From: a virus
Taxonomy: Duplodnaviria > Caudoviricetes
Length of the DNA stretch: 64,000 nt
IMG/VR virus record: IMGVR_UViG_3300043447_000250
Location: 1 to 64,000 of that record
Strand: one strand, 5' to 3'
A program made the position numbers and the translations under genes. The notes under the pieces were generated by a model that was not told where the DNA came from, made no database searches, and worked only from the letters and a program-made list of their open reading frames with translations. Below, in pieces: positions 3,719-60,662 of the stretch (position 1 is its first letter; each line of letters starts with the position of its first letter).

Positions 3719-3727
3719 TGTTATACT
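3719..3727 (+). promoter_or_regulatory. Extended -10 promoter for the tail tube gene
   Basis: TGTTATACT; SD GAGGTG before ATG 3782. Confidence 0.55.
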
Positions 3728-3781: not shown

Positions 3782-4408
3782 ATGGCAGAATATACAAGAG
3801 GTACTAGCAACAACATCATCGTTGGTGCTGCAGCACTTTTTACATACGAAGCAGGCGTTTTAACAGACGCTGATCTTCCAGCATACGCAGATGGCGATTC
3901 ATTCCGTAAGACACTTACAAATGACGCTGACTTCCGTAACGTTGGATACACAATGAACGGCCTTGAGATCCAGTTCCAACCTGACTTCGGTGAAGTTAAG
4001 GTTGATCAGGTCCTTGACGTTGCTAAGTTGTACAAGCAGGGAATGCAGGTCTCATTGAAGACAACATTCGCTGAGTCAACACTTGAGAATCTTCTATTCT
4101 CATTAGCAGGAAAGGATGCAGACCTTACAACAGTCTCATCTAACCCAACACTTAACCTTACTGCAGGAGACATCGGCGAATGCCCTGTTGAGCGTGGTTT
4201 GGTTGCTGTAGGTCCAGGTACAGGTGACTGTGCAGTTGGATCAGAACTCGAAAGAGTTTACGTAGCATACCGTGCACTTTCAATTGAAAATGTTACAGTA
4301 TCTGCAAAGCGTGACGAGGCGACAATGTTCGAAGTATCATTCCGCCTTCTTCCAAATGACAATGCGTCATATGGTAAGATCGTTGATCGCACAATCCCAG
4401 CAGCATAA
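3782..4408 (+). CDS. Major tail tube protein
   Basis: Siphoviral tube motifs (VGYTMNGLEIQFQPDFGEVKVDQ; ESTLENL); followed by a terminator, chaperones and the TMP. Confidence 0.85.
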   Translation: MAEYTRGTSNNIIVGAAALFTYEAGVLTDADLPAYADGDSFRKTLTNDADFRNVGYTMNGLEIQFQPDFGEVKVDQVLDVAKLYKQGMQVSLKTTFAESTLENLLFSLAGKDADLTTVSSNPTLNLTAGDIGECPVERGLVAVGPGTGDCAVGSELERVYVAYRALSIENVTVSAKRDEATMFEVSFRLLPNDNASYGKIVDRTIPAA

Positions 4409-4424
4409 TACAACTTAATATGAG

Positions 4425-4458
4425 AGGCTCAATCCTTCGGGGTTGGGCCTTTCTTTTT
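4425..4458 (+). terminator. Rho-independent terminator
   Basis: AGGCTCAATCC-TTCG-GGGTTGGGCCT followed by TTCTTTTT. Confidence 0.85.
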
Positions 4459-4466
4459 GGTATACT
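4458..4466 (+). promoter_or_regulatory. Extended -10 promoter, leaderless geometry
   Basis: TGGTATACT, 6 nt, then ATG 4473; no SD. Confidence 0.65.
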
Positions 4467-4472
4467 TATATA

Positions 4473-5156
4473 ATGGCTACAGAAATCTATCAAATTAATA
4501 ACGTCTATTTAATGGACGGGACAGAACTAGAAATCTCACCATTAAAAATAAAATACTTAAGAATATTCATGAAGCAGTTCGATGAAGTTAGAAGTGCTGA
4601 AAATGATATTGATGCAATTTCTGCACTAGCCAGATGTGCAATGACCTGCATGAAACAGTACCTACCAAGGCTATCAGTTTCAATTGAGGAGTTTGAGGAC
4701 TCTGTAGACTTAAAGACTATTTATCTTATTTTAGAATATGCTGCTGGTATTAAGGTAGATAAAGACTCAGACGAGTCAGTAAAAAAGCAAGCAGTAGATA
4801 GTGGATCTTCTTGGGATGACTTAGATTTAGCAAAACTAGAATCAGAGGTTTTTCTGCTGGGGATTTGGAAAGATTATGACGAACTAGAAAGATCTCTCTC
4901 TATGCAAGAGTTAACCTCTATCTTGAACATTAAAAGAGAAGAAGATTATTCACATAAAAAATTCCTTGCAGCGATGCAGGGTGTAGACCTTGACAAGGGT
5001 AACGATAGATCTAATGCCTGGGAAGAAATGAAGGCTAGAGTCTTTAGTGGTGGAGCAGCAGCAAACTCTAAGGATATTGTTGCACTACAAGGAGTGAGTG
5101 CACAAAAGGCTGGTTTCGGAATCGGAATGGGCCTAGACTACGAAAGAATAGGCTAA
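4473..5156 (+). CDS. Tail assembly chaperone, long (GT-like) form
   Basis: Lies between tube and TMP. The N-terminal ~95 aa are paralogous to 5209..5520. The C-terminal part (W.DYDELERSLSMQEL) is gpT-like. Confidence 0.75.
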   Translation: MATEIYQINNVYLMDGTELEISPLKIKYLRIFMKQFDEVRSAENDIDAISALARCAMTCMKQYLPRLSVSIEEFEDSVDLKTIYLILEYAAGIKVDKDSDESVKKQAVDSGSSWDDLDLAKLESEVFLLGIWKDYDELERSLSMQELTSILNIKREEDYSHKKFLAAMQGVDLDKGNDRSNAWEEMKARVFSGGAAANSKDIVALQGVSAQKAGFGIGMGLDYERIG

Positions 5157-5172
5157 AAATAAGCATGGCCTA

Positions 5173-5181
5173 TGGTATAAT
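5173..5181 (+). promoter_or_regulatory. Extended -10 promoter
   Basis: TGGTATAAT upstream of SD GGAGG and ATG 5209. Confidence 0.65.
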
Positions 5182-5208
5182 TAACTAACCAAACCTAATG
5201 GAGGAATA

Positions 5209-5520
5209 ATGTCAGATACAACAACAAAGTCAATCACACTAATCGATGGTACTAAGGTCGACGTACGACCACTAAAGATTTCTTTGTTAAAGGACTTTAT
5301 GAAGCGATTTCAGGAACTTGCTGAAGTAGCAGAAAATAATGATCAGTCTATGGATGTTCTTATGGACTGTGTAGAGATTGCATTCAAGCAATATTTGAAG
5401 GATCCAGTTACACGTGAAGAATTAGAGGATAATATTGATCTTCCAACAGTCTACCAAGTTATCGATGCAGCATCAGGTATCCAACTCACTGATCCTACAG
5501 CATTGCTTACAGGAAGATAA
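5209..5520 (+). CDS. Tail assembly chaperone, short (G-like) form
   Basis: Directly before the TMP; paralogous to the N-terminus of the preceding gene. Confidence 0.75.
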   Translation: MSDTTTKSITLIDGTKVDVRPLKISLLKDFMKRFQELAEVAENNDQSMDVLMDCVEIAFKQYLKDPVTREELEDNIDLPTVYQVIDAASGIQLTDPTALLTGR

Positions 5521-5549: not shown

Positions 5550-8500
5550 GTGTCAGATGTAAACGCTAATATCGGTATACAGTTTGACACTGCCAACGCC
5601 CTTGCACAGTTAAGGCAACTACAGGCTGGTCTTAGTAAGTTTAACCAGTCACTCACTGAGGGTAATGTTGCTGCTGCAAATGCACAAAAGGGACTAAACG
5701 CACAACTTGTCCAGTCTATTAATGCGACTGGCAAGTTTGTTGCGTCCCAGAAAACAATTGCTTCTAGTACAGCATCTTTTACTGAGGCACTAGAAAAAAA
5801 TAAGTTAAGCATGAGCGAGTACTTCAGGTTTACTGGCGCTGCAGCAACAATGAACAGTAAGAGCCTCAAGGGGTTTTTCTCTAAAGAAAAAGAGATTCTG
5901 ACTCGTGCTAGTAAAGACAGAGTAAAGGCACTTCAGACACAGTATATTCAATTAACTAATGCTCAGGGTGACCTAGTTAAGGTTCTACAGGTTGTTCCAA
6001 AACATCTTAAGATGGTTAATGGTGAGTATGCTGACTATGCAACAAGAACTCAGATGGCTGCACAAAGACAGCAGTTCCTTAATCAATTAATTAAGCAGGG
6101 TTCAACACAACTTTTAAACTTTGGTAAGAACACGCAGTGGGCTGGTCGTCAGTTGATGGTTGGTTTTACTATTCCATTAACGATGTTGGGGTCAGCAGCA
6201 TCTAAGGTATTTAGAGAAATGGAAATGGCCGTTGTAGGATTTACCAGAGTATATGGTGATATGACAACAGGAATGGCAGATACAGAAAAGGCTGTTGCGT
6301 CAATCCAGCAACTTGCAAAAGAATTTACTAAGTTTGGAATTGCTGCAACTGATACAGTAAACATGGCTGCTAAAGCAGCAGCAATGGGTCTTACGGGATC
6401 TGCTTTAACAGCACAAGTTACAGCAGCAACAAAACTTGCTGTACTTGGTCAGGTAGAACAGCAGCAAGCACTAGAAACAACTATTTCTCTGCAGAATGCT
6501 TTTGGTATTAGTGCAGACCAACTTGCTCAAAAGATTAACTTCCTTAACGCAGTTGAAAACCAAACTGTTCTTTCTATTGAAGACTTAACAATTGCAATTC
6601 CAAAGGCTGGACCAGTTATTAAGCAACTTGGTGGCGATGTAGAGGATTTAGCATTCTTTATGACTGCTATGAAAGAAGGCGGAATCAATGCATCAGAAGG
6701 TGCAAACGCACTTAAGTCTGGACTAGCATCTCTTATTAACCCTTCTAAAAAAGCATCAGAGGTTCTTGCTGGATTTGGTATCAACGTAAAGGGAATTGTT
6801 GATGCAAACGCTGGAGATCTTAAGGCAACCGTTGTAGGCTTTGCTAGAGCACTTGATACGCTAGACCCACTCAATAGAGCAAGAGCAATTGAAACAATGT
6901 TCGGTAAGTTTCAGTTTGCAAGACTATCAACACTATTCCAAAACATAACTAAGGATAGTTCTCAGGCAGCAAGAGCACTGGGGCTAGCAGGAGCATCTGT
7001 TGAAGAGTTAGCAATCCTTTCTGAGCGAGAACTTGGCAAGGTTGAGAACGCTGTTGGTGTTAAGTTTCAGAAGCAGTTAGAAAATGTAAAGTTACAACTT
7101 ATACCAATTGGAAAAGCATTCTTAGAAGCAATAACTCCAGTAGTTCAATTTGCTGGAAAGATTTTAGAAAAGTTTAATAACCTAAGTGCTGGAACAAAAA
7201 AGTTTGTAGTTGGCTTTATTGCCATATTAGGCGGTATTGCTCCAGTTGCACTTATGACTGTTGGTCTTGTTGCTAACGGTGTTGCCAACTTGATTAAATT
7301 CTTTGGAATGCTTCGTGGTGGAATGGCCAAACTTAATGGCCAAAATAATGTTCTTGGTGGCGGATTCGATTACCTTACCCAGGCAGAAATTGATAACTTA
7401 GCACAGTCACAAGCACTACATACCTCGCACCAAGATTTAATATCAACCTTCAATGTTGAAAAGGCATCTGTAGATGCCCTTGCTGTTGCATATCAAAATG
7501 CAGCATCTCAAGCAAGAGCACTTGCATCAGGATCTCCAGGATTGTTCAATGCTGTTCCTGGAGCACAAGGTGCAGTATCAGGTCTTCCAAAGTATGCTGG
7601 AGGAAAGAAATCTGATGTGGTATCAGTGGGCGGTACAGGAAATCAAGACACAGAATTAGCATTACTTACACCAGGAGAAACAGTTGTATCTGCTCCAATG
7701 AGCAAGAAGTACGGATCATTAATTAATGCAATGATTGATGACAACGTTCCTGGATATAAGAGGTCAAAGAGAGCAAAAGAAGTAGTAGACCCATTACTGA
7801 ATGGCAAAAGTCCCCAAAGCCTACAAGATATAATCGACACCCTTGAAGTGAGAAGGGGAGTTAATATAGCCGAACAACCAACAAGCGGTGCGGTGCAAGG
7901 TGGCACTTTCCTAGATGCAGCATTTTCAGTAGATGCGATGATGGCTCCAGGTAATACTGCTTCTGGTCCAGGAATGGATATGGGTTGGCTGGCGGAATCA
8001 GATGAGGCAACAGCATCTATTGTGTCTGCACTAAAGGTTGGCCAAATGAGAGTGGAAGGCGCTTCAGTAAGTCAGGAAAACTATGCTAAGTTTTGGGCAG
8101 ACCTAACTCCAGAATTAGATGAACTTGCAGGTATTTTCCAGTCTCAAGCCAGAGGAGCAAAAGATGTAGATGATGCTGGTAAAAAAGCCTACCCATTAAT
8201 TGTTCAAAGAATTCAAGAGATGGAAGAAAGTGGAAGGCTATCTGCTGAAGACGCTGCAAAACTTCAATTAAGAACTAGAGCACTACTTGCACCAACACCA
8301 GAAGATCGATTAGCAAAAAGAAACAGAAGGTTTGAACTTGCTGTAGATCCAGAAACTGGTGGGGAAAAGGTAAAGAAGGTAAGTTGGGATGGAAGAGCGA
8401 CTGATGAAGGCCCAACATATTCTTCAGAACCTTTTCAACAAGCCTTTCCAATGGAACTTGAAAAAAGAGGAATACCTCTTCCAGCAAACTATGATAAGTA

Positions 8501-11500
8501 TCAGTTTGCACACGTAGCAGATAGGCTAGAAGGAGAAACAACAACAAGGCCTGTAACTTTAAGAAAGTATAGAGATGCAACAGGTGGTACTCCAGGAGAA
8601 GTAGAGTTAGCAAGACGTGCAGCAGCAGGTGAAGAAATTAGGCCTGGAGATACGGTATCTTCAAAGGAAGAGTTAGATTCATGGGTTAGAGAAAAGATTG
8701 ATTTAGAGTCACAGAATGAACTTGCAGATGCTGTTGATCAGCAAATTGAAAATGCAAAAACAAAAGCAAAGGTTAAGTCTCCGTCAGAAAGAACAAGAGA
8801 ACTTGGCAAAAACATTGCAGATGGACTTAAGGTTGGAATGGAAGAGGGTGAAGCAGGGGTAAGAGCCCAGTCAGACAAACTTACAGATGCTGCAATCCCA
8901 TCCGCAGCACAAACACAGGCCAAGGTTGATAGAATGGACCTGGGCAACAAGGCCTTCTATGATGACCTAAAGACTCCAGATACTCAAGATCAAAGACAGG
9001 TCCTTAAGTCAATAGATAGACAAAACAGAAAACTTGGAGTAGGTCGCAATGTTGTTGTGCCACAAGATCCTGTAAGTGGAAATGTTAGTCCATCTTCAGC
9101 AAACATTTCTGTAACAAATAATAAAACAATTATTAACCAGGCAGCCGAAGTTGCTGCAAAAGCACAGGTTGATGCATCTAACGCCGAAAAGGTTGCAGCA
9201 GATTTAAGAATAAAAGCAGCGAAGTGGTCGGAAGTTGCAGCACGTGAGTCTGGCAAGAATGCGTACACCGCTGACAATGCAAAAGAACTTGAAAAGAGAG
9301 CAAGTCAAGCAGAACAGAGAGCAGCAGAATTAAGAATTAAGGCTGCTGAAGAGCAAGCAAGAGCAGCATCAATTGCAAGAGAAGATGGCAGCGATGGTTC
9401 GATTGAGGCTGAGGTTGCAAAGGAAAAGGCAAATGAGGCAGAGAAAAAAGCAGCAGAGGCTAGAATCAAAGCAGCAGAAGCAGAGCAAAAAGCAGCGGAA
9501 GAAAGAAAATTACGTGCAGAGCAGGGGCTTGAAACTGCAGAAGATCCAGTTAAAATTACAGAATCAATTAAAAAGGAAGAAGAGTTAGTCGCTAATGGAA
9601 CACAAGAGAAGGGCGACTTATTAAGAAGAAGTGTCGCAGGGTCAGAAGATGTGGCAGACTCAACTGTACTAGTTGCAGATCAGACTTCAGACCTCGCTGA
9701 TGCAACACAAGAAGCATTAAATACTCAACTAGAAAGCAATGACAACCTTGTTACTTCTGCAGAATTAACAGATGTAACTGCTGCAAACCTTGGAGATGTT
9801 CTTCAAGCAACAGATCAGACAGGCTTGGCGCAACAAGATCTTGCAGAATCTTCAAATGAAATTGCAAAAACCAACGACGACATCTTAAAACTAAAGCAAG
9901 AACAGCGTGACAAACTTAAGAAGTACAATGCAGAAGCAGCAGCACGAGCAGCAGCAGAAGGTGCAATCCCAGAGGCATCTCAAACAAATGGCAAGACTGG
10001 AGTGCCTTCAACAGTCCTTAGTTCTACTGATGCATATGAGGAAGCAATGGGATGGTTGCCTGGTACTCATGGACCAGATGATCCAGGCTCAGATGGCTAT
10101 ACAAAAGATAAAAAGGGAAGACTTTTGTTTGACCCAGAGACTGGTCAACCAACAACATTAAAAGAAAAGGCTCTTAAGCAAAAAGCAAGAGGCCTCCGTC
10201 GTGAAAAGGTATCCAAGTTTTCTGGAAAGGTTTCTGGTGGTCTTGGTACTGCAGCCATGGTTTCTGGTATGGTCGGCGCTCCTCCACAAGTTACAGCAGC
10301 ACTTGGTGGCGCAGCCACTGTTGCTCAGTTTGCACCAATGATTGCAGGTCTTGGTCCAATTGGAATGGCAGTAGCAGGTGTCGCAGCAGTTGGAGTAGGA
10401 CTTTATGCTTTCAATAAGCACCTTCAAGGATCACAAGATGCTCAGGCAAAGTTTGTTCGTGAAACATCTGCATCAACAAAGAAGATGGCAGAAATCGGGG
10501 CAATTACTGGTAAAGTCGGAGCATCTGAAATTATGGCTAAGAGAAGAGCCACAGGAACATCTAAGGATTATATTGCCAGAGAAAGACAAGGATCTCAATT
10601 TGGAGACACATTCTTACAGTCTGATGTAGGAAAGAATATGTCAAAGATTCTTCAAAAGAATATTGAAAAGAGTGGCGCTAAAGAAGCAGTTAAGGTTTTT
10701 GGAGCAGAACTTGCTGCATATGTTCAAGATGGTGTTTTAACTGCAGAGCAAGCACAGAGCATTGCTCAACAAATTGGAATTAATTTTAAGGACACAAAAT
10801 TAGGAATCAATGTTGATGCAGAAATCTCCGCCTTAATTGGTCCAAATGGAGAAGATCTTAAGAAGGATCCTATTGTTGTAGCAACAAGATTAGTAACAAC
10901 TGCTGAGAATAGATCTCAAAGATCTTTGGCAAATATGAAGGCAGCACAAGCCGACGGCCACTGGGGTTCTACTGAGGCTGCAGATCTAGCAGCAACTGAT
11001 GCAGCAGCAGTTCAAATGGCTCAAATGCAAGCAGATGCTGTTGCTAAGAAGTTCGATGATGAAATTAGAGCGCTAGAAACTCAACTTGCCCAAACAAAGA
11101 ATAAAGAAAAGCAAGTTAAGTTAGAAAAAGAATTGAGTGAACTTAAGACAAAGGCAAATACTGCAGAAATTCAAATGAATAATCTCGTTGCAGATTCTGT
11201 AGATAATGCTGTTAATCGTTTCAAAGATAACATTCAGTATGAGACCACGTATATAGATGGTTTAACTCTTGGGTTGTCAAAACTTTGGGGTGGCGGAAAT
11301 CAGCGTGAAGCAGGCTATATGCGAGGACTCTCTGGAGCAGTAACAGATAAGTATGCAAACACAGAGCAAGCAACGATGGCACAAACCGTACAAGACAGAT
11401 TGGCAAAATATAGTGACGGTGGAGCATTCCTTGGACTAGGAACAGATAACTATACTGAGGCTGGATTTGCTGGAGGTAAGGAGGCACAAAACTTTGAAGT

Positions 11501-14500
11501 TAAGATGAAACTTCTTATGGCCAATGGAACACTTACTCCAAATCAAGAAACAGCACTCCTAGATCTTTTTGAGGGTAACCTACCAATGCTTGAAACAACT
11601 CTAGACATCGGTACAAGACTTCATGGTGCATCTCAGACTGCAGAAATGATGATGCTGCTTAGTGGTTTTGGGGATAAAGAGTATGCCCAGCAAATAGCAC
11701 TAGAGATAACAACCAAGGATAATGACACATATAAGAAGTTAGTTGACATGCTTGGCCTTGCCCAAATGCTTGATGGCAGAGAAATCAACATGGAAGTTGT
11801 TCTCAAAGAGATGGGTGGAGTTGCAGGACTTGAGTTCTATATAAAGAAGTTTGATGACCTAGAAGCAAAAATAAAAGATCTTAATGGAAAGCCAGTAACA
11901 TTAGAAACGGTTGCTAAGTTTACAGATGAAACTGGTGTTGGAGTAGACGCAGGATTCATTGATTATATTAATAAAGAGTTCAAGGGCGATGCAAAACAAC
12001 AGACTAACGCCATTAGAACCTATACAACAATTTATCAGCAGTTAATGAGCATGGACTACACAAGTCCAGAAGCAAGAGAGTACTTTAAGTCTCAAGCGCA
12101 AACAAATGTGTTTGATAGATTAGCACAACTTCAAGCAACTGGCGGGGCACCAACAGGAGCAGAACTAACTACATGGATTAAGCAACAAACAGAACTTGAA
12201 ATTGATGCAATTATTACCAAGGTAAAGGTTGACCCAAAGGCGGTTGCTAGCCAAGAAGCAATAACAGTTATTGGACAAAAACCAGTAATTGATGCAAAGA
12301 CTCCTGGCGCAGGTGCAGGCGCTGGTGCAGGGTCAGGAACTAACCCTCTAGACTTCCTTGATGCATTAGCAATGCGTATCAAGATGGTAAGAGATCAAGC
12401 ATTTAATGCACGAAAGCCACTTGAGTCAATGGTCAAGGCCTTCACAAGTAAGGAAGCACAAAAAGATGTTGCTAACATGTTTAAGTTGTTTAAGGGTCTT
12501 CAACAACAACTTATTTCTTTACAGGCTCCAAAAGAATTTAGAGACTTTATCGCAGGTCTATCTGCAGAAGAGTTAGATAAGTTAAAAAACCTTAAGGGTA
12601 AAAAAGCATTATTTACATTTGGTAAAGACAAAAACGGTAAAATTGATAAAAACAATATTACTGGATTTACTCAAGCAGGACAAGCAGTTATGGCTGCATA
12701 CAGAGAAGCGCCTCTTAATGATTTTAACATAGCGCAGCAAGAGGCAATTCAAAATACAAATAATCAGTTTAAAGCATTTGCAAGATTAAAGGCCCAAGGT
12801 GTCGATACAGACAAGGCACTAGAAATGGTATCTGATTCAGCACTTGCTGCGTCACTTGCCTCAAAAGCACTGTCTGATACAGAACTAAAGAAGTACACCA
12901 CAGATATAAATACAGCAAACAGTGCACTTGAAAAGCAAGCAGTCATAACTGACCTTATTAAAAAGAATTCAGACTTCGAGTTTAAAACAGAGGCAATGCC
13001 TAAACTAGCATCTGCCATGAACATGGCAAGTTTCAGTGCTGATCAGATTAAGGCTGTCCTAAGTGATCCAAACCTTGCAAAGCAATTAATGGATGACTTG
13101 GCTGATGGCAAGGTTGATTCAAAAGCAATTTCAGAATACCTAAAGAGTATTGAGGATCAAAAAATTCTTGATCTACAGATTAGTTTTAATGCTGGAGACT
13201 TTGCTGCATCTGCTCGTCCTGGTATGGAACTTGTTAATAAGATGTTCTCTACACAAGAGCAACTAATTAGAACTGGAATTAATAAGGTATCAAATGGTAA
13301 TACTGAAGACGTTGTTGCTGAATTAAAATCTATCAAGGCACAAAATGAAAAGGATCAACTTGCAATTCAAAAAATTCAGGTAGAGACGCTAAAGCCACTA
13401 GAAAATAAAATAGCAGATGCTCAGAGATATTTGGAAACTCAGATCTCTAGAAAAATTGAAGAGTATCAAAAGCAAATCGACTCAGTTCAAAGAAGCATAG
13501 AGTTGGCATTCGAAAGACCAATTAAGGCAATTCAGGATAGAAATGCTCTGATCTCACACGACCTAGAGGTTATGTCCCATGCAGCAGAGCAGATTAATGA
13601 AAAGTATGACAAGCAGGTCGAAGCACTTGATGCTGTAGAAAAGGCAAATCAGAGAATTCTTCGCCAGCAACAACAACAACTAGGACTTGCGGATGCTCTT
13701 TCCTCTGGTGATATTGCAGCAGCAGCACGTGCTGCACAGGAAATGAGAGCAGCCAATGCAGATGATCTCGCCACAGCAACAAGAGATAGTTTAGATGCAG
13801 CAAGAAAGACAGAGATCGACTCACTTACTGGCGTATCTTCAGGGCTTACAAGAAAACAAATTGAAGAAGAGCAGTACCAAAATGCACAAAAGATTTATGC
13901 GTTAGAAAATACCGCCACCACAAACTATAATGGACAATTGCTTACAAGAGTTCAGTTGCTAGAAAGAGTTCAGGGAATTCAGGATGCTATCTATGCAAAA
14001 GAGCAAGAAAGACTAGCCAAGCAAGCAGAGATTACTTCACTTGAGGACCAGGTTTATAATGTTAATAAGGATCAGATTAAACCATTGCAGGATGCTATGG
14101 ATGTTAGAAATCTTGCTGCAGCCAATTACGAGGCAGACCTTCAGAGAGCAATTGACACTATTCAGGTTCTTGGACAGACAAAGGATGTTTGGGATGGAAT
14201 AACTGCAAAGATTGATGCTTCAGAGTTTGCGGGGCAAGAGTTTGATAAGACTATGGGTATCATGCTTGCTTCAGTAGATGCTATTGATGGCATATGGGAA
14301 GATGTTCTCTTTAAACTTAATAGTGTATCCGATGTTACACAAGAAATTTCAGATGCAAGTGCAGATATGTTTGCAACTGCAGGCGCCAATGACCTTGATG
14401 CTAGAGAACTTGCTGATAAGGCCCAAGCGGATTATGCAACTAAGTACGCTAACTATGAAACACAAAAGGCAGAATATGATAAAGATTTTGCATTAATGAA

Positions 14501-15956
14501 TAGCATAAAGGCATCAGGTGGTGGATTGGAAGGCGCTACTGCAATTGCAGGTTTTAATGCAAAATGGAAGAATGGCGCACCTGTTGCACCAACTCCACCT
14601 GAGCCATCAAGCGCAGCCGATAATCCAAATGTTTCATACAATAATCCATCAGTAAATAGTGCAGATAAGTATATTAGTGCAAATGCTAATAAGGCTGCTG
14701 CTAAGCCAGCAGGTGGAACTGGAGGTTCTGGAGGAGGTTCTGGCTCTGGCGGTAATTCAGGAACAAAAACAGACCCAACACCGACTCCAACAAAGCCAGG
14801 CGCAGTTACTGGTACAACTGGAACAGGCTCTGCAACAGTTTCTGCTTTAGCAGAAGATAAGATATTTGATGTTCGTGAGATAAAGAAGATCACAACTGGG
14901 GCAAATAGAGACTTTACTGCTGCAACTGCAGCGGGTCAGACAGCAGCAGTTAGTAAAATTCAAACAGATATCAGAAACATTCAACTTCAAATTGATAAAG
15001 ACTTCCCTAATAGATATTCTGCAACAGATCATATCAACGCTACACTAACAACAGCCGAAGCAGATAAAACTGAATATACTAGGATGCTTGCAAAGACTAC
15101 AGATGTAAAGCAAAAGGCTGAACTAAGAGTAGAACTAGACAAAATCATGGCACTAAAAGATGAAATGAGAAAATACTTTTATGGAAAAGATAGTACTGGG
15201 AAGGTCGTTAGATCTAGTGACACCGTAAAATCTGAAAAAATGGCTCAGGCGCAACTTGATGCGACAAAGCAAATGCCTGCTGAAGTTAAAGAACTACTCG
15301 ATATGCTTAAAAACAGATCAGAGACATTCAAGGCTGATAAGAAAGAATATGATGTAAAGCAAAAATCTTATAGGGCTAAGGCAAATGACCGTGGATATAC
15401 GCAAGACTTAGATAAGATCCCTATGGGTGATATCAAGAAGGATGACCCAGATACATATAAGGTTCTATTTCCACTATCTCAGGAGTACGCTAAAGCGAAA
15501 TCTACAATGGAGTGGAGAGAACTTGCAATGAATAAAGCAAGAACACTTCTTACAGATGCTGGGTATACAAAGGATAAGACTTCTTGGTATTTCGGTGATG
15601 ATACCACTTATATGACAAGAACAAATAATGGCTCTGACTATTCAAAATGGAAGGGGTATGCTACAGGAGGTCTTGTTTCATCTAGATTTGCACAAAAAGA
15701 ATTTAAGATGGGAACTGATACCGTACCTGCGATGCTTACCCCAGGAGAGTTTGTTATGACTAAGTATGCTGTTAAGAATACTGGAGTAGATAATTTAAGA
15801 GCAATAAATAACGGTGCATCAGTGGGAGATTCAGTGTATAATTATAACCTAAGCGTTAATGTAAGATCTGATGCTAATCCAGATGAAATTGCAAGAAGTG
15901 TTATGGCTCAGATTAAGCAGATTGATTCACAAAGAATTAGAGGGGTGAGGGTATAA
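5550..15956 (+). CDS. Tape measure protein (3468 aa)
   Basis: Very long Ala-rich helical ORF after the chaperones; TP901-type TMP core (GGINASEGANALKSGLASLINP); hydrophobic segments; C-terminal GTDTVPAMLTPGEFV motif; GTG start. Confidence 0.92.
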   Translation: MSDVNANIGIQFDTANALAQLRQLQAGLSKFNQSLTEGNVAAANAQKGLNAQLVQSINATGKFVASQKTIASSTASFTEALEKNKLSMSEYFRFTGAAATMNSKSLKGFFSKEKEILTRASKDRVKALQTQYIQLTNAQGDLVKVLQVVPKHLKMVNGEYADYATRTQMAAQRQQFLNQLIKQGSTQLLNFGKNTQWAGRQLMVGFTIPLTMLGSAASKVFREMEMAVVGFTRVYGDMTTGMADTEKAVASIQQLAKEFTKFGIAATDTVNMAAKAAAMGLTGSALTAQVTAATKLAVLGQVEQQQALETTISLQNAFGISADQLAQKINFLNAVENQTVLSIEDLTIAIPKAGPVIKQLGGDVEDLAFFMTAMKEGGINASEGANALKSGLASLINPSKKASEVLAGFGINVKGIVDANAGDLKATVVGFARALDTLDPLNRARAIETMFGKFQFARLSTLFQNITKDSSQAARALGLAGASVEELAILSERELGKVENAVGVKFQKQLENVKLQLIPIGKAFLEAITPVVQFAGKILEKFNNLSAGTKKFVVGFIAILGGIAPVALMTVGLVANGVANLIKFFGMLRGGMAKLNGQNNVLGGGFDYLTQAEIDNLAQSQALHTSHQDLISTFNVEKASVDALAVAYQNAASQARALASGSPGLFNAVPGAQGAVSGLPKYAGGKKSDVVSVGGTGNQDTELALLTPGETVVSAPMSKKYGSLINAMIDDNVPGYKRSKRAKEVVDPLLNGKSPQSLQDIIDTLEVRRGVNIAEQPTSGAVQGGTFLDAAFSVDAMMAPGNTASGPGMDMGWLAESDEATASIVSALKVGQMRVEGASVSQENYAKFWADLTPELDELAGIFQSQARGAKDVDDAGKKAYPLIVQRIQEMEESGRLSAEDAAKLQLRTRALLAPTPEDRLAKRNRRFELAVDPETGGEKVKKVSWDGRATDEGPTYSSEPFQQAFPMELEKRGIPLPANYDKYQFAHVADRLEGETTTRPVTLRKYRDATGGTPGEVELARRAAAGEEIRPGDTVSSKEELDSWVREKIDLESQNELADAVDQQIENAKTKAKVKSPSERTRELGKNIADGLKVGMEEGEAGVRAQSDKLTDAAIPSAAQTQAKVDRMDLGNKAFYDDLKTPDTQDQRQVLKSIDRQNRKLGVGRNVVVPQDPVSGNVSPSSANISVTNNKTIINQAAEVAAKAQVDASNAEKVAADLRIKAAKWSEVAARESGKNAYTADNAKELEKRASQAEQRAAELRIKAAEEQARAASIAREDGSDGSIEAEVAKEKANEAEKKAAEARIKAAEAEQKAAEERKLRAEQGLETAEDPVKITESIKKEEELVANGTQEKGDLLRRSVAGSEDVADSTVLVADQTSDLADATQEALNTQLESNDNLVTSAELTDVTAANLGDVLQATDQTGLAQQDLAESSNEIAKTNDDILKLKQEQRDKLKKYNAEAAARAAAEGAIPEASQTNGKTGVPSTVLSSTDAYEEAMGWLPGTHGPDDPGSDGYTKDKKGRLLFDPETGQPTTLKEKALKQKARGLRREKVSKFSGKVSGGLGTAAMVSGMVGAPPQVTAALGGAATVAQFAPMIAGLGPIGMAVAGVAAVGVGLYAFNKHLQGSQDAQAKFVRETSASTKKMAEIGAITGKVGASEIMAKRRATGTSKDYIARERQGSQFGDTFLQSDVGKNMSKILQKNIEKSGAKEAVKVFGAELAAYVQDGVLTAEQAQSIAQQIGINFKDTKLGINVDAEISALIGPNGEDLKKDPIVVATRLVTTAENRSQRSLANMKAAQADGHWGSTEAADLAATDAAAVQMAQMQADAVAKKFDDEIRALETQLAQTKNKEKQVKLEKELSELKTKANTAEIQMNNLVADSVDNAVNRFKDNIQYETTYIDGLTLGLSKLWGGGNQREAGYMRGLSGAVTDKYANTEQATMAQTVQDRLAKYSDGGAFLGLGTDNYTEAGFAGGKEAQNFEVKMKLLMANGTLTPNQETALLDLFEGNLPMLETTLDIGTRLHGASQTAEMMMLLSGFGDKEYAQQIALEITTKDNDTYKKLVDMLGLAQMLDGREINMEVVLKEMGGVAGLEFYIKKFDDLEAKIKDLNGKPVTLETVAKFTDETGVGVDAGFIDYINKEFKGDAKQQTNAIRTYTTIYQQLMSMDYTSPEAREYFKSQAQTNVFDRLAQLQATGGAPTGAELTTWIKQQTELEIDAIITKVKVDPKAVASQEAITVIGQKPVIDAKTPGAGAGAGAGSGTNPLDFLDALAMRIKMVRDQAFNARKPLESMVKAFTSKEAQKDVANMFKLFKGLQQQLISLQAPKEFRDFIAGLSAEELDKLKNLKGKKALFTFGKDKNGKIDKNNITGFTQAGQAVMAAYREAPLNDFNIAQQEAIQNTNNQFKAFARLKAQGVDTDKALEMVSDSALAASLASKALSDTELKKYTTDINTANSALEKQAVITDLIKKNSDFEFKTEAMPKLASAMNMASFSADQIKAVLSDPNLAKQLMDDLADGKVDSKAISEYLKSIEDQKILDLQISFNAGDFAASARPGMELVNKMFSTQEQLIRTGINKVSNGNTEDVVAELKSIKAQNEKDQLAIQKIQVETLKPLENKIADAQRYLETQISRKIEEYQKQIDSVQRSIELAFERPIKAIQDRNALISHDLEVMSHAAEQINEKYDKQVEALDAVEKANQRILRQQQQQLGLADALSSGDIAAAARAAQEMRAANADDLATATRDSLDAARKTEIDSLTGVSSGLTRKQIEEEQYQNAQKIYALENTATTNYNGQLLTRVQLLERVQGIQDAIYAKEQERLAKQAEITSLEDQVYNVNKDQIKPLQDAMDVRNLAAANYEADLQRAIDTIQVLGQTKDVWDGITAKIDASEFAGQEFDKTMGIMLASVDAIDGIWEDVLFKLNSVSDVTQEISDASADMFATAGANDLDARELADKAQADYATKYANYETQKAEYDKDFALMNSIKASGGGLEGATAIAGFNAKWKNGAPVAPTPPEPSSAADNPNVSYNNPSVNSADKYISANANKAAAKPAGGTGGSGGGSGSGGNSGTKTDPTPTPTKPGAVTGTTGTGSATVSALAEDKIFDVREIKKITTGANRDFTAATAAGQTAAVSKIQTDIRNIQLQIDKDFPNRYSATDHINATLTTAEADKTEYTRMLAKTTDVKQKAELRVELDKIMALKDEMRKYFYGKDSTGKVVRSSDTVKSEKMAQAQLDATKQMPAEVKELLDMLKNRSETFKADKKEYDVKQKSYRAKANDRGYTQDLDKIPMGDIKKDDPDTYKVLFPLSQEYAKAKSTMEWRELAMNKARTLLTDAGYTKDKTSWYFGDDTTYMTRTNNGSDYSKWKGYATGGLVSSRFAQKEFKMGTDTVPAMLTPGEFVMTKYAVKNTGVDNLRAINNGASVGDSVYNYNLSVNVRSDANPDEIARSVMAQIKQIDSQRIRGVRV

Positions 15957-52689: not shown

Positions 52690-52971
52690 TTGAAGCATGA
52701 TTGGAAAGAGGATGGTGCTTGCCTAGACTTTGACACTAACTTATTTTTTGATAAGTATGAGGAAGATGAGTTGCTAAGACCCGCAATCGATAAACTTTGC
52801 TCTGAATGCCCAGTAAGCAAGACATGTTTTGCTGTTGGTGTTTCTCAAAAGGAGTGGGGCATTTGGGGAGGGGTATACCTTGAAGGTGGGGGAATTTCCA
52901 AAGAGTTTAGCAGGCACAAAACAAAGGCTGACTGGGCAAATACCTGGCAGTATTTAACAATGGAGAAGTAA
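52690..52971 (+). CDS. whiB: WhiB-family transcription factor
   Basis: W...GAC...FF...C.ECPV..C...EWGIWGG. Confidence 0.9.
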   Translation: MKHDWKEDGACLDFDTNLFFDKYEEDELLRPAIDKLCSECPVSKTCFAVGVSQKEWGIWGGVYLEGGGISKEFSRHKTKADWANTWQYLTMEK

Positions 52972-56411: not shown

Positions 56412-56433
56412 AAAATTCTGGTATAATGATTGC

Positions 56434-56709
56434 ATGACAATTCATTCAAATCCAACGCTCTCTACTTCAGAGCCAACACGACTTTCTCCAAATGGAGTAC
56501 ACTCAGGTGTAGATATTACAATTCAAAACCTAAGCGAAACTGCTTATATTTACCTTGGTGGAGAAAATGTAGATGTAGAAAGTTTTGGCTACCGTCTATC
56601 ACCAGGAGCAGCATGGTCTGTTGAACTACCTGGAACAGATGCACTTTATGCAGTTGGAGATGAAAACGGATCTTATATCGCAGTACTCCAGACAGGACTT
56701 GATAACTAA
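56434..56709 (+). CDS. Small beta-rich protein (leaderless)
   Basis: TGGTATAAT-6-ATG; IQNLSETAYIYLGG..GYRLSPG..DALYAV pattern seen in phage structural proteins. Confidence 0.6.
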   Translation: MTIHSNPTLSTSEPTRLSPNGVHSGVDITIQNLSETAYIYLGGENVDVESFGYRLSPGAAWSVELPGTDALYAVGDENGSYIAVLQTGLDN

Positions 56710-59873: not shown

Positions 59874-59939
59874 ACTAAAAGTATATCATGCGTGAAACTG
59901 CTTTATTTTAAGAATATTTATATATGCTATAATTATATA

Positions 59940-60662
59940 ATGACTGATATGCCAGAAAACCCAATAATGCCAACTCAGACCTACGAGGGTTGTGAGTGCG
60001 ATACATGTGCAGAAAATAATACATCTTGTGCCAACTGCCCTGATTGTGGAGGTAAAGATGCAGAGACAGAGATGGCTGAATATGATGCATCAGTAGGTAA
60101 GTCAGACTGTTGCCCAGAAGACATTTCTAAGCAAGCACCTTGTTGGGATGGATATGTACAGCGTGGTATGAAGCCAGGAGATAATGGTAAGCCAGTTCCT
60201 AACTGTGTACCTGCAGCAAAAGCAGATGACCTATGGGAAGATGATGACACAGTAGTTTATGAAACAGATACAGTATCTAAGGCTGATGGATATTCACCAC
60301 CAGCAGGAGCAAGATCTGCTGCTCGTAGAGCAATTAAGTTTAAGGAAGATGGTAAGGCTAACGGTGCAGGAACATCTGTTGGCTGGACTAGAGCGGGGCA
60401 GTTAGCAAGAGGAGAGACAATTTCTCTTAGTACTGTTAAGAGAATGTACTCATATTTCTCACGCCATGAAGTAGACAAGAAGGGTAAGGACTGGGGAAAC
60501 TCAGCAAATCCTTCTAATGGATACATCATGTGGCTAGCATGGGGTGGAGACGCAGGTTTCTCATGGTCAAGATCAATTGTTAATCGTGAAAAAGATAAAG
60601 CATTGTTTGCTGATTTTGGAAAAGATTACACTAACAACAAGACTGAAAGGTACTTAATATAA
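59940..60662 (+). CDS. Multi-module protein, probably virion/head-associated
   Basis: TGCTATAAT-6-ATG; Cys-rich module, CWDGY..G.K..VPNCVP module, and RAGQLA...KRMYSYFSRH...WGGDAG domain. Confidence 0.6.
   Translation: MTDMPENPIMPTQTYEGCECDTCAENNTSCANCPDCGGKDAETEMAEYDASVGKSDCCPEDISKQAPCWDGYVQRGMKPGDNGKPVPNCVPAAKADDLWEDDDTVVYETDTVSKADGYSPPAGARSAARRAIKFKEDGKANGAGTSVGWTRAGQLARGETISLSTVKRMYSYFSRHEVDKKGKDWGNSANPSNGYIMWLAWGGDAGFSWSRSIVNREKDKALFADFGKDYTNNKTERYLI

Follow-up and report, generated by a model that had tools for sequence, protein, structure and literature searches.

In phage lambda, the tail assembly chaperones gpG and gpGT are produced at a ratio of ~30:1, which is set by the efficiency of a frameshift. 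As far as the treatment in PMC5009743 extends, this −1 frameshift is widely conserved in long-tailed phages, with T4 as the stated exception, and the same article reviews the primary literature on it (Levin 1993; Xu, Hendrix and Duda 2004, 2013, 2014). Some T4-like phages are reported to carry a short tail assembly chaperone (TAC) gene and a separate long fusion gene with no frameshift, as summarized in PMC10885494 from Vladimirov, Gautam and Davidson (2022, Virology 566:9). In long-tailed phages the G/GT frameshift is treated as nearly universal and is sought by annotation pipelines and frameshift predictors. Here we analyze a locus within a window of 64 kb, the first part of a 91-kb IMG/VR virus record, that probably encodes a pair of tail assembly chaperones corresponding to gpG and gpGT of lambda, and in which the −1 frameshift has, on this reading, been replaced by duplicated, separately signaled genes.

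Two paralogous genes between the tube and tape measure genes

The two genes have the major tail protein gene on one side and the tape measure gene on the other, and the same order is found in related loci. The features of the region, all on the plus strand and numbered from the first letter of the window, are as follows.

3719–3727 (+): extended −10 element TGTTATACT, 5' of the major tail protein gene with a leader of ~55 nt (pattern search and sequence)
3782–4408 (+): major tail (tube) protein gene, 208 aa (phrog_2175, E 3e-33; phrog_885, major tail protein, E 6e-6)
4422–4453 (+): intrinsic terminator with a 14-bp stem, TTCG loop and T-run, predicted to terminate the tube-gene transcript
4458–4466 (+): extended −10 element TGGTATACT, predicted promoter of the long gene, its last T 6 nt 5' of the ATG at 4473, with no Shine-Dalgarno (SD) sequence
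4473–5156 (+): putative long chaperone gene (GT equivalent), 227 aa, ATG at 4473; G-like domain (residues 1 to ~95), linker and T domain (residues ~113–227) in a single frame
4781–4787 (+): A_AAA_AAG heptamer, in frame, at codons 103–105 of the long gene and the G/T boundary
5173–5181 (+): extended −10 element TGGTATAAT, predicted promoter of the short gene (pattern search)
5200–5204 (+): SD sequence GGAGG, 4 nt 5' of the short-gene ATG at 5209
5209–5520 (+): putative short chaperone gene (G equivalent), 103 aa, the ancestral-type copy
5550–15956 (+): tape measure protein gene, 3468 aa, GTG start, 29 nt 3' of the short gene; syntenic with Streptomyces phages and kept in related loci

The blastn matches of the tube gene were Streptomyces phage genes annotated as major tail protein. 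Comparing the two small proteins directly, BLASTP aligned residues 10–95 of the long protein with residues 8–93 of the short one at 35/87 identities (40%; E 2e-20), and both proteins matched the same family, phrog_10504 (E 3e-17 for the long and 1e-19 for the short protein). The C-terminus of the long protein (residues 131–217) matched a separate family, phrog_10474 (E 6e-16), from within one open reading frame, and its T domain also matched T open reading frames of relatives. The two products have a common N-terminal G domain, paralogous and not identical, to which the longer one adds a C-terminal T extension, with the junction around VDSGSSWDDLDL. An earlier note, made from the sequence alone, had aligned the first ~95 residues of the long product with the short one by eye and had seen the additional C-terminal domain as continuous with the long frame; the pairwise and family searches bear out both observations.

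The layout is conserved on a large scale. Relatives of the long protein numbered at least 586 in IMG/VR, and the protein database held 6478 clusters of it, nearly all of 226–228 aa. Among the best 80 of the at least 586 loci, 72 had the tube, long, short and tape measure genes in this order and the others were cut by contig ends. Two more sets, seeded with more distant proteins, contributed 73 and 79 loci with the fused gene followed by a G paralogue, along with a further 6 and 4 loci in which the fused gene was present and the contig ended before a short gene could appear. An in-frame G–T gene with a second G was thus found in all ~220 loci that reach far enough, so that the two-gene arrangement is kept in every fused-type relative examined that was long enough. 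The long and short paralogues are 30–45% identical inside every genome, which implies that the duplication is old. Estimates of dN/dS were 0.18 for the G part of the long gene, 0.08 for its T part and 0.11 for the short gene, with dS near saturation; both genes, in all their parts, are under purifying selection. One related locus (L018:4682–5902) has, separating the long and short chaperone genes, a 1.2-kb insertion whose two genes encode a 204-aa 2OG-Fe(II) oxygenase-like protein (E 8.5e-5, a match that misses the cut-off) and a 154-aa DUF6817 protein (E 4e-17); the pair therefore tolerates separation.

The neighboring tape measure gene has its own regularities. Across the distinct start contexts of the window and related loci, it begins with GTG or TTG in 25/32 and with ATG in 7/32, 13–29 nt past the short chaperone gene, and is preceded by a GAGGTG- or GGGGTG-type SD sequence. 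This combination of start codon and SD type may keep tape measure output low. The tape measures of Gordonia phages with ~540-nm tails, at ~3,300 aa (9,984-bp genes), are described as among the longest known (PMC4982279), and the tape measure in the window, at 3468 aa, slightly exceeds these. Such a very long protein would be expected to create a correspondingly large need for the short chaperone.

Expression signals of the two genes

Signals were counted over 104 unique loci. A TGnTAnnnT motif ends 6–9 nt before the ATG of the long gene in 104/104 of them, with a spacing of 6 nt in 52 loci, 7 nt in 13, 8 nt in 12 and 9 nt in 27 (the background frequency at a random position is 0.8%), and an SD-like motif in the last 20 nt before this gene was found in 0/104. 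A hairpin followed by a T-run likewise lies 5' of the long gene in 104/104 loci (minimum free energy −18 to −29 kcal/mol); the stems differ in sequence between lineages, with the pairing kept. The short gene has a different set of signals: TGnTATAAT is positioned 23–29 nt 5' of its ATG in 104/104 loci, and GGAGG or AGGAG is present in 97/104. Within the window, the motif TGNTATAMT occurs 17 times versus 7.0 expected, and no shuffle got to 17. The stretch between the long and short genes showed no terminator, and transcription from the first promoter should accordingly extend through the short gene. The earlier note had read most of this from the window, namely a terminator with a UUCG loop between the tube gene and the chaperones, an extended −10 element for each gene, and leaderless geometry for the long gene alongside a strong GGAGG for the short one, and the hairpin, the promoter motifs, the leaderless geometry and the SD sequence recur across the 104 loci at the frequencies given above.

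A leaderless start of the long gene is plausible and its geometry is conserved; it stands as a prediction from sequence. The same arrangement of an extended −10 element, 6 nt and an ATG was observed at four more genes in the window, with starts at 56434 (+), 59940 (+), 62666 (−) and 59873 (−), spans of 56419–56436 and 59925–59942 (+) and of 62681–62664 and 59888–59871 (−), and open reading frames of 91–240 aa. This phage seems to make recurrent use of leaderless starts.

Leaderless mRNAs are common in Actinomycetota and are translated efficiently there, so the assumption that a leaderless gene yields a scarce product is not guaranteed to hold. The window also encodes a WhiB-family protein (52702–52875 (+); PF02467, 44 bits versus a cut-off of 23.6), and WhiB is a hallmark of Actinomycetota and their phages. 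This gene points to an actinobacterial host and, taken with a G+C content of ~39% and the kinship to Streptomyces phages, suggests one of low G+C. The habitat of the clade is probably freshwater.

Frameshift-bearing relatives and the explanations they favor

Searching GenBank phages with the long protein by tblastn returned 127 Streptomyces and 3 Rhodococcus phage records, in which the best matches were split in two and coincided with genes annotated as tail assembly chaperone. In Patelgo, the chaperone pair is annotated as a joined (frameshifted) coding sequence between the major tail and tape measure genes, and in its DNA T is read in the −1 frame with respect to G; EGole shares this layout, its T being called as a hypothetical gene of its own. 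Run against 1.84 billion representatives, a long-protein profile recovered only ~3 full-length fused clusters, together with many G-only (~100–120 aa) and many T-only (~85–115 aa, positions ~120–226) open reading frames, which is what gene callers make of frameshift loci.

Four uncultured relatives (L085, L165, L250 and L251) each carry one G gene, T being open in the −1 frame; we looked for a second G gene in all four and found none. Their G genes end in canonical X_XXY_YYZ heptamers: C_CCA_AAA in L085, C_CCA_AAC in both L165 and L250, and A_AAC_CCA in L251. A programmed frameshift close to the 3' end of G is present in these four and in Patelgo and absent from the window. The relationship is close, with the tube proteins of L085 and L165 51–71% identical to that of the window and the T domains of the frameshift-type relatives 47–58% identical. 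In L085 (positions 286–2028) the major tail protein is encoded twice 5' of the single G, by paralogues with 61% and 71% identity to the gene of the window.

Across the sampled loci, the fused gene always occurs with an extra G gene and the frameshift always with a single G gene. No other observation argues as strongly for the short gene as a replacement of the frameshift's zero-frame product, and this exclusive pattern also sustains the earlier note's proposal that duplicated genes, long before short, stand in place of the frameshift: the two genes are paralogues, and the frameshift-type relatives lack a second G gene. In a G-domain tree, the fused N-domains lie on one side of a branch with 100/96 support, and the short G proteins and frameshift-type G proteins (those of Streptomyces phages among them) on the other; the G proteins of L085 and L165 are 44–49% identical to the short protein of the window and 36–39% identical to the long N-domain; and the signals 5' of G in all four frameshift-type relatives, a terminator, TGcTATAAT, a leader of ~25 nt and GGAGG, are arranged as before the short gene here. 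Tree, identities and 5' signals together identify the short gene, with its promoter and ribosome-binding site, as the conservative one of the two copies, and the fused one as that which diverged and lost its leader. Trees of the T domain place L085, a frameshift-type locus, inside the fused sequences, on a long branch and with moderate support, and a single clade of fused sequences is not rejected by the AU test (p 0.118), so that a single origin of the fused gene is neither shown nor rejected by the G-domain and T-domain trees and this test. Given the nesting of the L085 T domain, the frameshift and two-gene states may interconvert.

These observations can be arranged in a simple scheme. The ancestral unit would have run from a terminator, an extended −10 promoter and a leader with an SD sequence through G and a slippery heptamer to T, read in the −1 frame; the gene order seen here would follow from its tandem duplication, from promoter through leader, G and slip site to T. 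In the first copy, a change would then have restored the frame, yielding the in-frame G–T fusion, and the leader and SD sequence would have been lost, while the second copy would have lost T but kept its promoter, leader, SD sequence and G. If the lambda model (PMC5009743) carries over, many copies of the short protein would coat the 3468-aa tape measure, and the long protein would enter this complex by way of its G-like domain and use T to recruit tube protein; the long N-domain is only ~40% identical to the short protein, so co-assembly on the tape measure might differ from that of lambda G and GT. The long gene would be read from a leaderless transcript only, and the short gene both by read-through of the long-gene transcript and from its own promoter, with a strong GGAGG. 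The ratio would accordingly be set by two promoters for the short gene versus one for the long, and by a strong SD sequence versus a leaderless start. From these expression signals only, we infer a large excess of short over long protein; the binding partners, the activity of the promoters and the leaderless start are predicted elements of the scheme.

A different use of the same two chaperones is conceivable and, in our assessment, unlikely: a division of labor in which the diverged G-like domain of the long protein binds elsewhere or to another partner (one specific stretch of the 3468-aa tape measure, for instance), with no lambda-type large excess of G. Such a role would fit the fast evolution of the long N-domain, which sits on the long 100/96 branch, has a dN/dS of 0.18 versus 0.11 for the short gene and is 40% identical to the short protein, and it would fit the efficiency of leaderless translation in Actinomycetota. 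However, the exclusive occurrence of either a frameshift or a second G is a prediction of one-for-one functional replacement, and the loss from the fused gene of the leader and SD sequence that the ancestral-type G has kept suggests that its output was re-tuned.

Replacement of the frameshift by separate genes would be incomplete if recoding persisted at A_AAA_AAG (4781–4787), where a −1 slip would produce a truncated G-like protein and leave the ratio partly set by frameshifting. This heptamer is a strong slip site in Escherichia coli (PMC5009743) and lies at the G/T boundary, with a stop in the −1 frame after 4 codons. We nevertheless consider persistent recoding very improbable: any heptamer occurs at this position in only 12/50 unique loci, lysine 105 of the long protein is not conserved, and every locus has a dedicated short gene. 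An in-frame scan of the long and short genes for X_XXY_YYZ heptamers found no conserved one, and A_AAA_AAG, being non-conserved, is probably incidental. No T-like frame follows the short gene: both alternative frames are closed there, and 13–29 nt separate it from the start of the tape measure gene. The earlier note had named a functional slippery site generating the fusion as a finding that would overturn its proposal; we found none, with the long form in frame and no heptamer conserved.

The two proteins were also compared with curated families and solved folds. No Pfam family scored above threshold for either protein. PF23857 (Phage_TAC_19) was sub-threshold at 19 bits versus a cut-off of 27, and 2/25 members matched it at E<0.01; weak matches to SGTA_dimer (6/25 members) were set aside as probable helical-hairpin noise. 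Both small-protein PHROG families carry the label 'unknown function'. Several long homologues (P0032, P0058–P0061 and P0086) bear the JGI name 'translation initiation factor 1 (eIF-1/SUI1)', a label that has no Pfam support and is probably a propagated misannotation.

In AlphaFold models, the G domains of both proteins form a beta-hairpin followed by four helices; pLDDT is 72 in the short protein and, in the long one, ~88 over the G domain and ~50 over the poorly modeled T domain. The solved tail assembly chaperones are YqbN (3KLU), Rbstp2171 (3FGX) and HK97 gp13 (2OB9) (PMC9603447). A fold search other than Foldseek over 48,161 representative PDB chains placed 3KLU at rank 1 (Z 5.4), 3FGX at rank 9 (Z 4.0) and 2OB9 at rank 48 (Z 3.5); these Z values are low, and placement of all three solved chaperones in the top 50 by chance seems unlikely. 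Matches in BFVD were mostly tail assembly chaperones, including N15 GT. Foldseek with the whole long model against the PDB returned nothing meaningful (top match IDO1 at E>0.2), an empty result for which the poorly modeled T domain is the likely reason, and a profile of the short family gave only chance-level matches to PDB sequences (E>0.5). That the two genes have nothing to do with chaperones (and encode, say, small structural or regulatory proteins that are unrelated), or that the layout is an assembly artifact of a frameshifted locus, is hardly credible: the sub-threshold Pfam result and the 'unknown function' labels would allow it, but the in-frame fusion recurs in hundreds of independent contigs and 6478 protein clusters, synteny and homology link it to annotated chaperones, the relatives carry the defining frameshift, and the fold matches are chaperones.

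Significance and comparison with known systems

An abundant lineage, with >580 IMG/VR contigs and thousands of protein clusters, has two genes where its close relatives keep textbook heptamers. Our confidence is evenly divided on the broadest reading of this, which is that a very large uncultured clade of actinobacterial phages lost the frameshift, which ranks among virology's most conserved recoding events, in favor of a duplicated pair, re-tuned the fused gene as leaderless, and thereby reveals that the only essential job of the frameshift is stoichiometry and not coupling in cis. If true, the clade and its frameshift-bearing sister lineages would amount to a natural experiment on the G/GT frameshift. 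With both states side by side in close relatives, they form a comparative system for asking whether the frameshift serves ratio setting or co-translational coupling, and would show how a ratio, here a predicted one, can be rebuilt from a promoter, a leaderless start and an SD sequence. For annotators, the practical consequence is that a frameshift should be neither forced onto such genomes nor called 'missing' from them.

We found no description of the chaperone layout of this clade in the literature. The arrangement is like that of lambda in that the locus lies between the tube and tape measure genes and encodes a short G form and a long form comprising G and a C-terminal T, and in that homologues in Streptomyces phages and in the four uncultured relatives use a canonical −1 slip. 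Unlike in lambda, there is no frameshift here and the long form is one open frame, the short form has a paralogous gene of its own (40% identical) 3' of the long gene, and each gene has its own promoter and a different type of translation start.

Among the closest known systems are the chaperones of the Stanwilliamsviridae (Streptomyces cluster BE-type, for example Patelgo and EGole), phages which have true homologues of both domains (38–40% identity, E to 3e-31), share the synteny of tube gene, terminator, promoter, chaperones and tape measure gene, and also have a long tape measure. Theirs, in contrast, is a single G gene with T in the −1 frame (a joined coding sequence in Patelgo) and no second G, and their G has a leader with an SD sequence.

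The T4-like phages, as summarized in PMC10885494, resemble the window in making short and long chaperone forms from separate genes without recoding. They differ in being contractile-tailed, whereas the tail module here is of the long non-contractile type and related to that of Streptomyces siphoviruses. A Pfam scan at E<=1 found no T4 family for either protein, and the lack of a detected sequence relation to T4 families, together with the different virus group, marks this as an independent origin. The split between a leaderless and an SD-led start and the frameshift-bearing outgroups are documented here, with T4-like phages compared as far as the summary in PMC10885494 describes them. On that account the separate-gene principle has already been published for T4-like phages and the locus described here is an independent instance of it, and a second independent case makes the solution look convergent and not a one-off.
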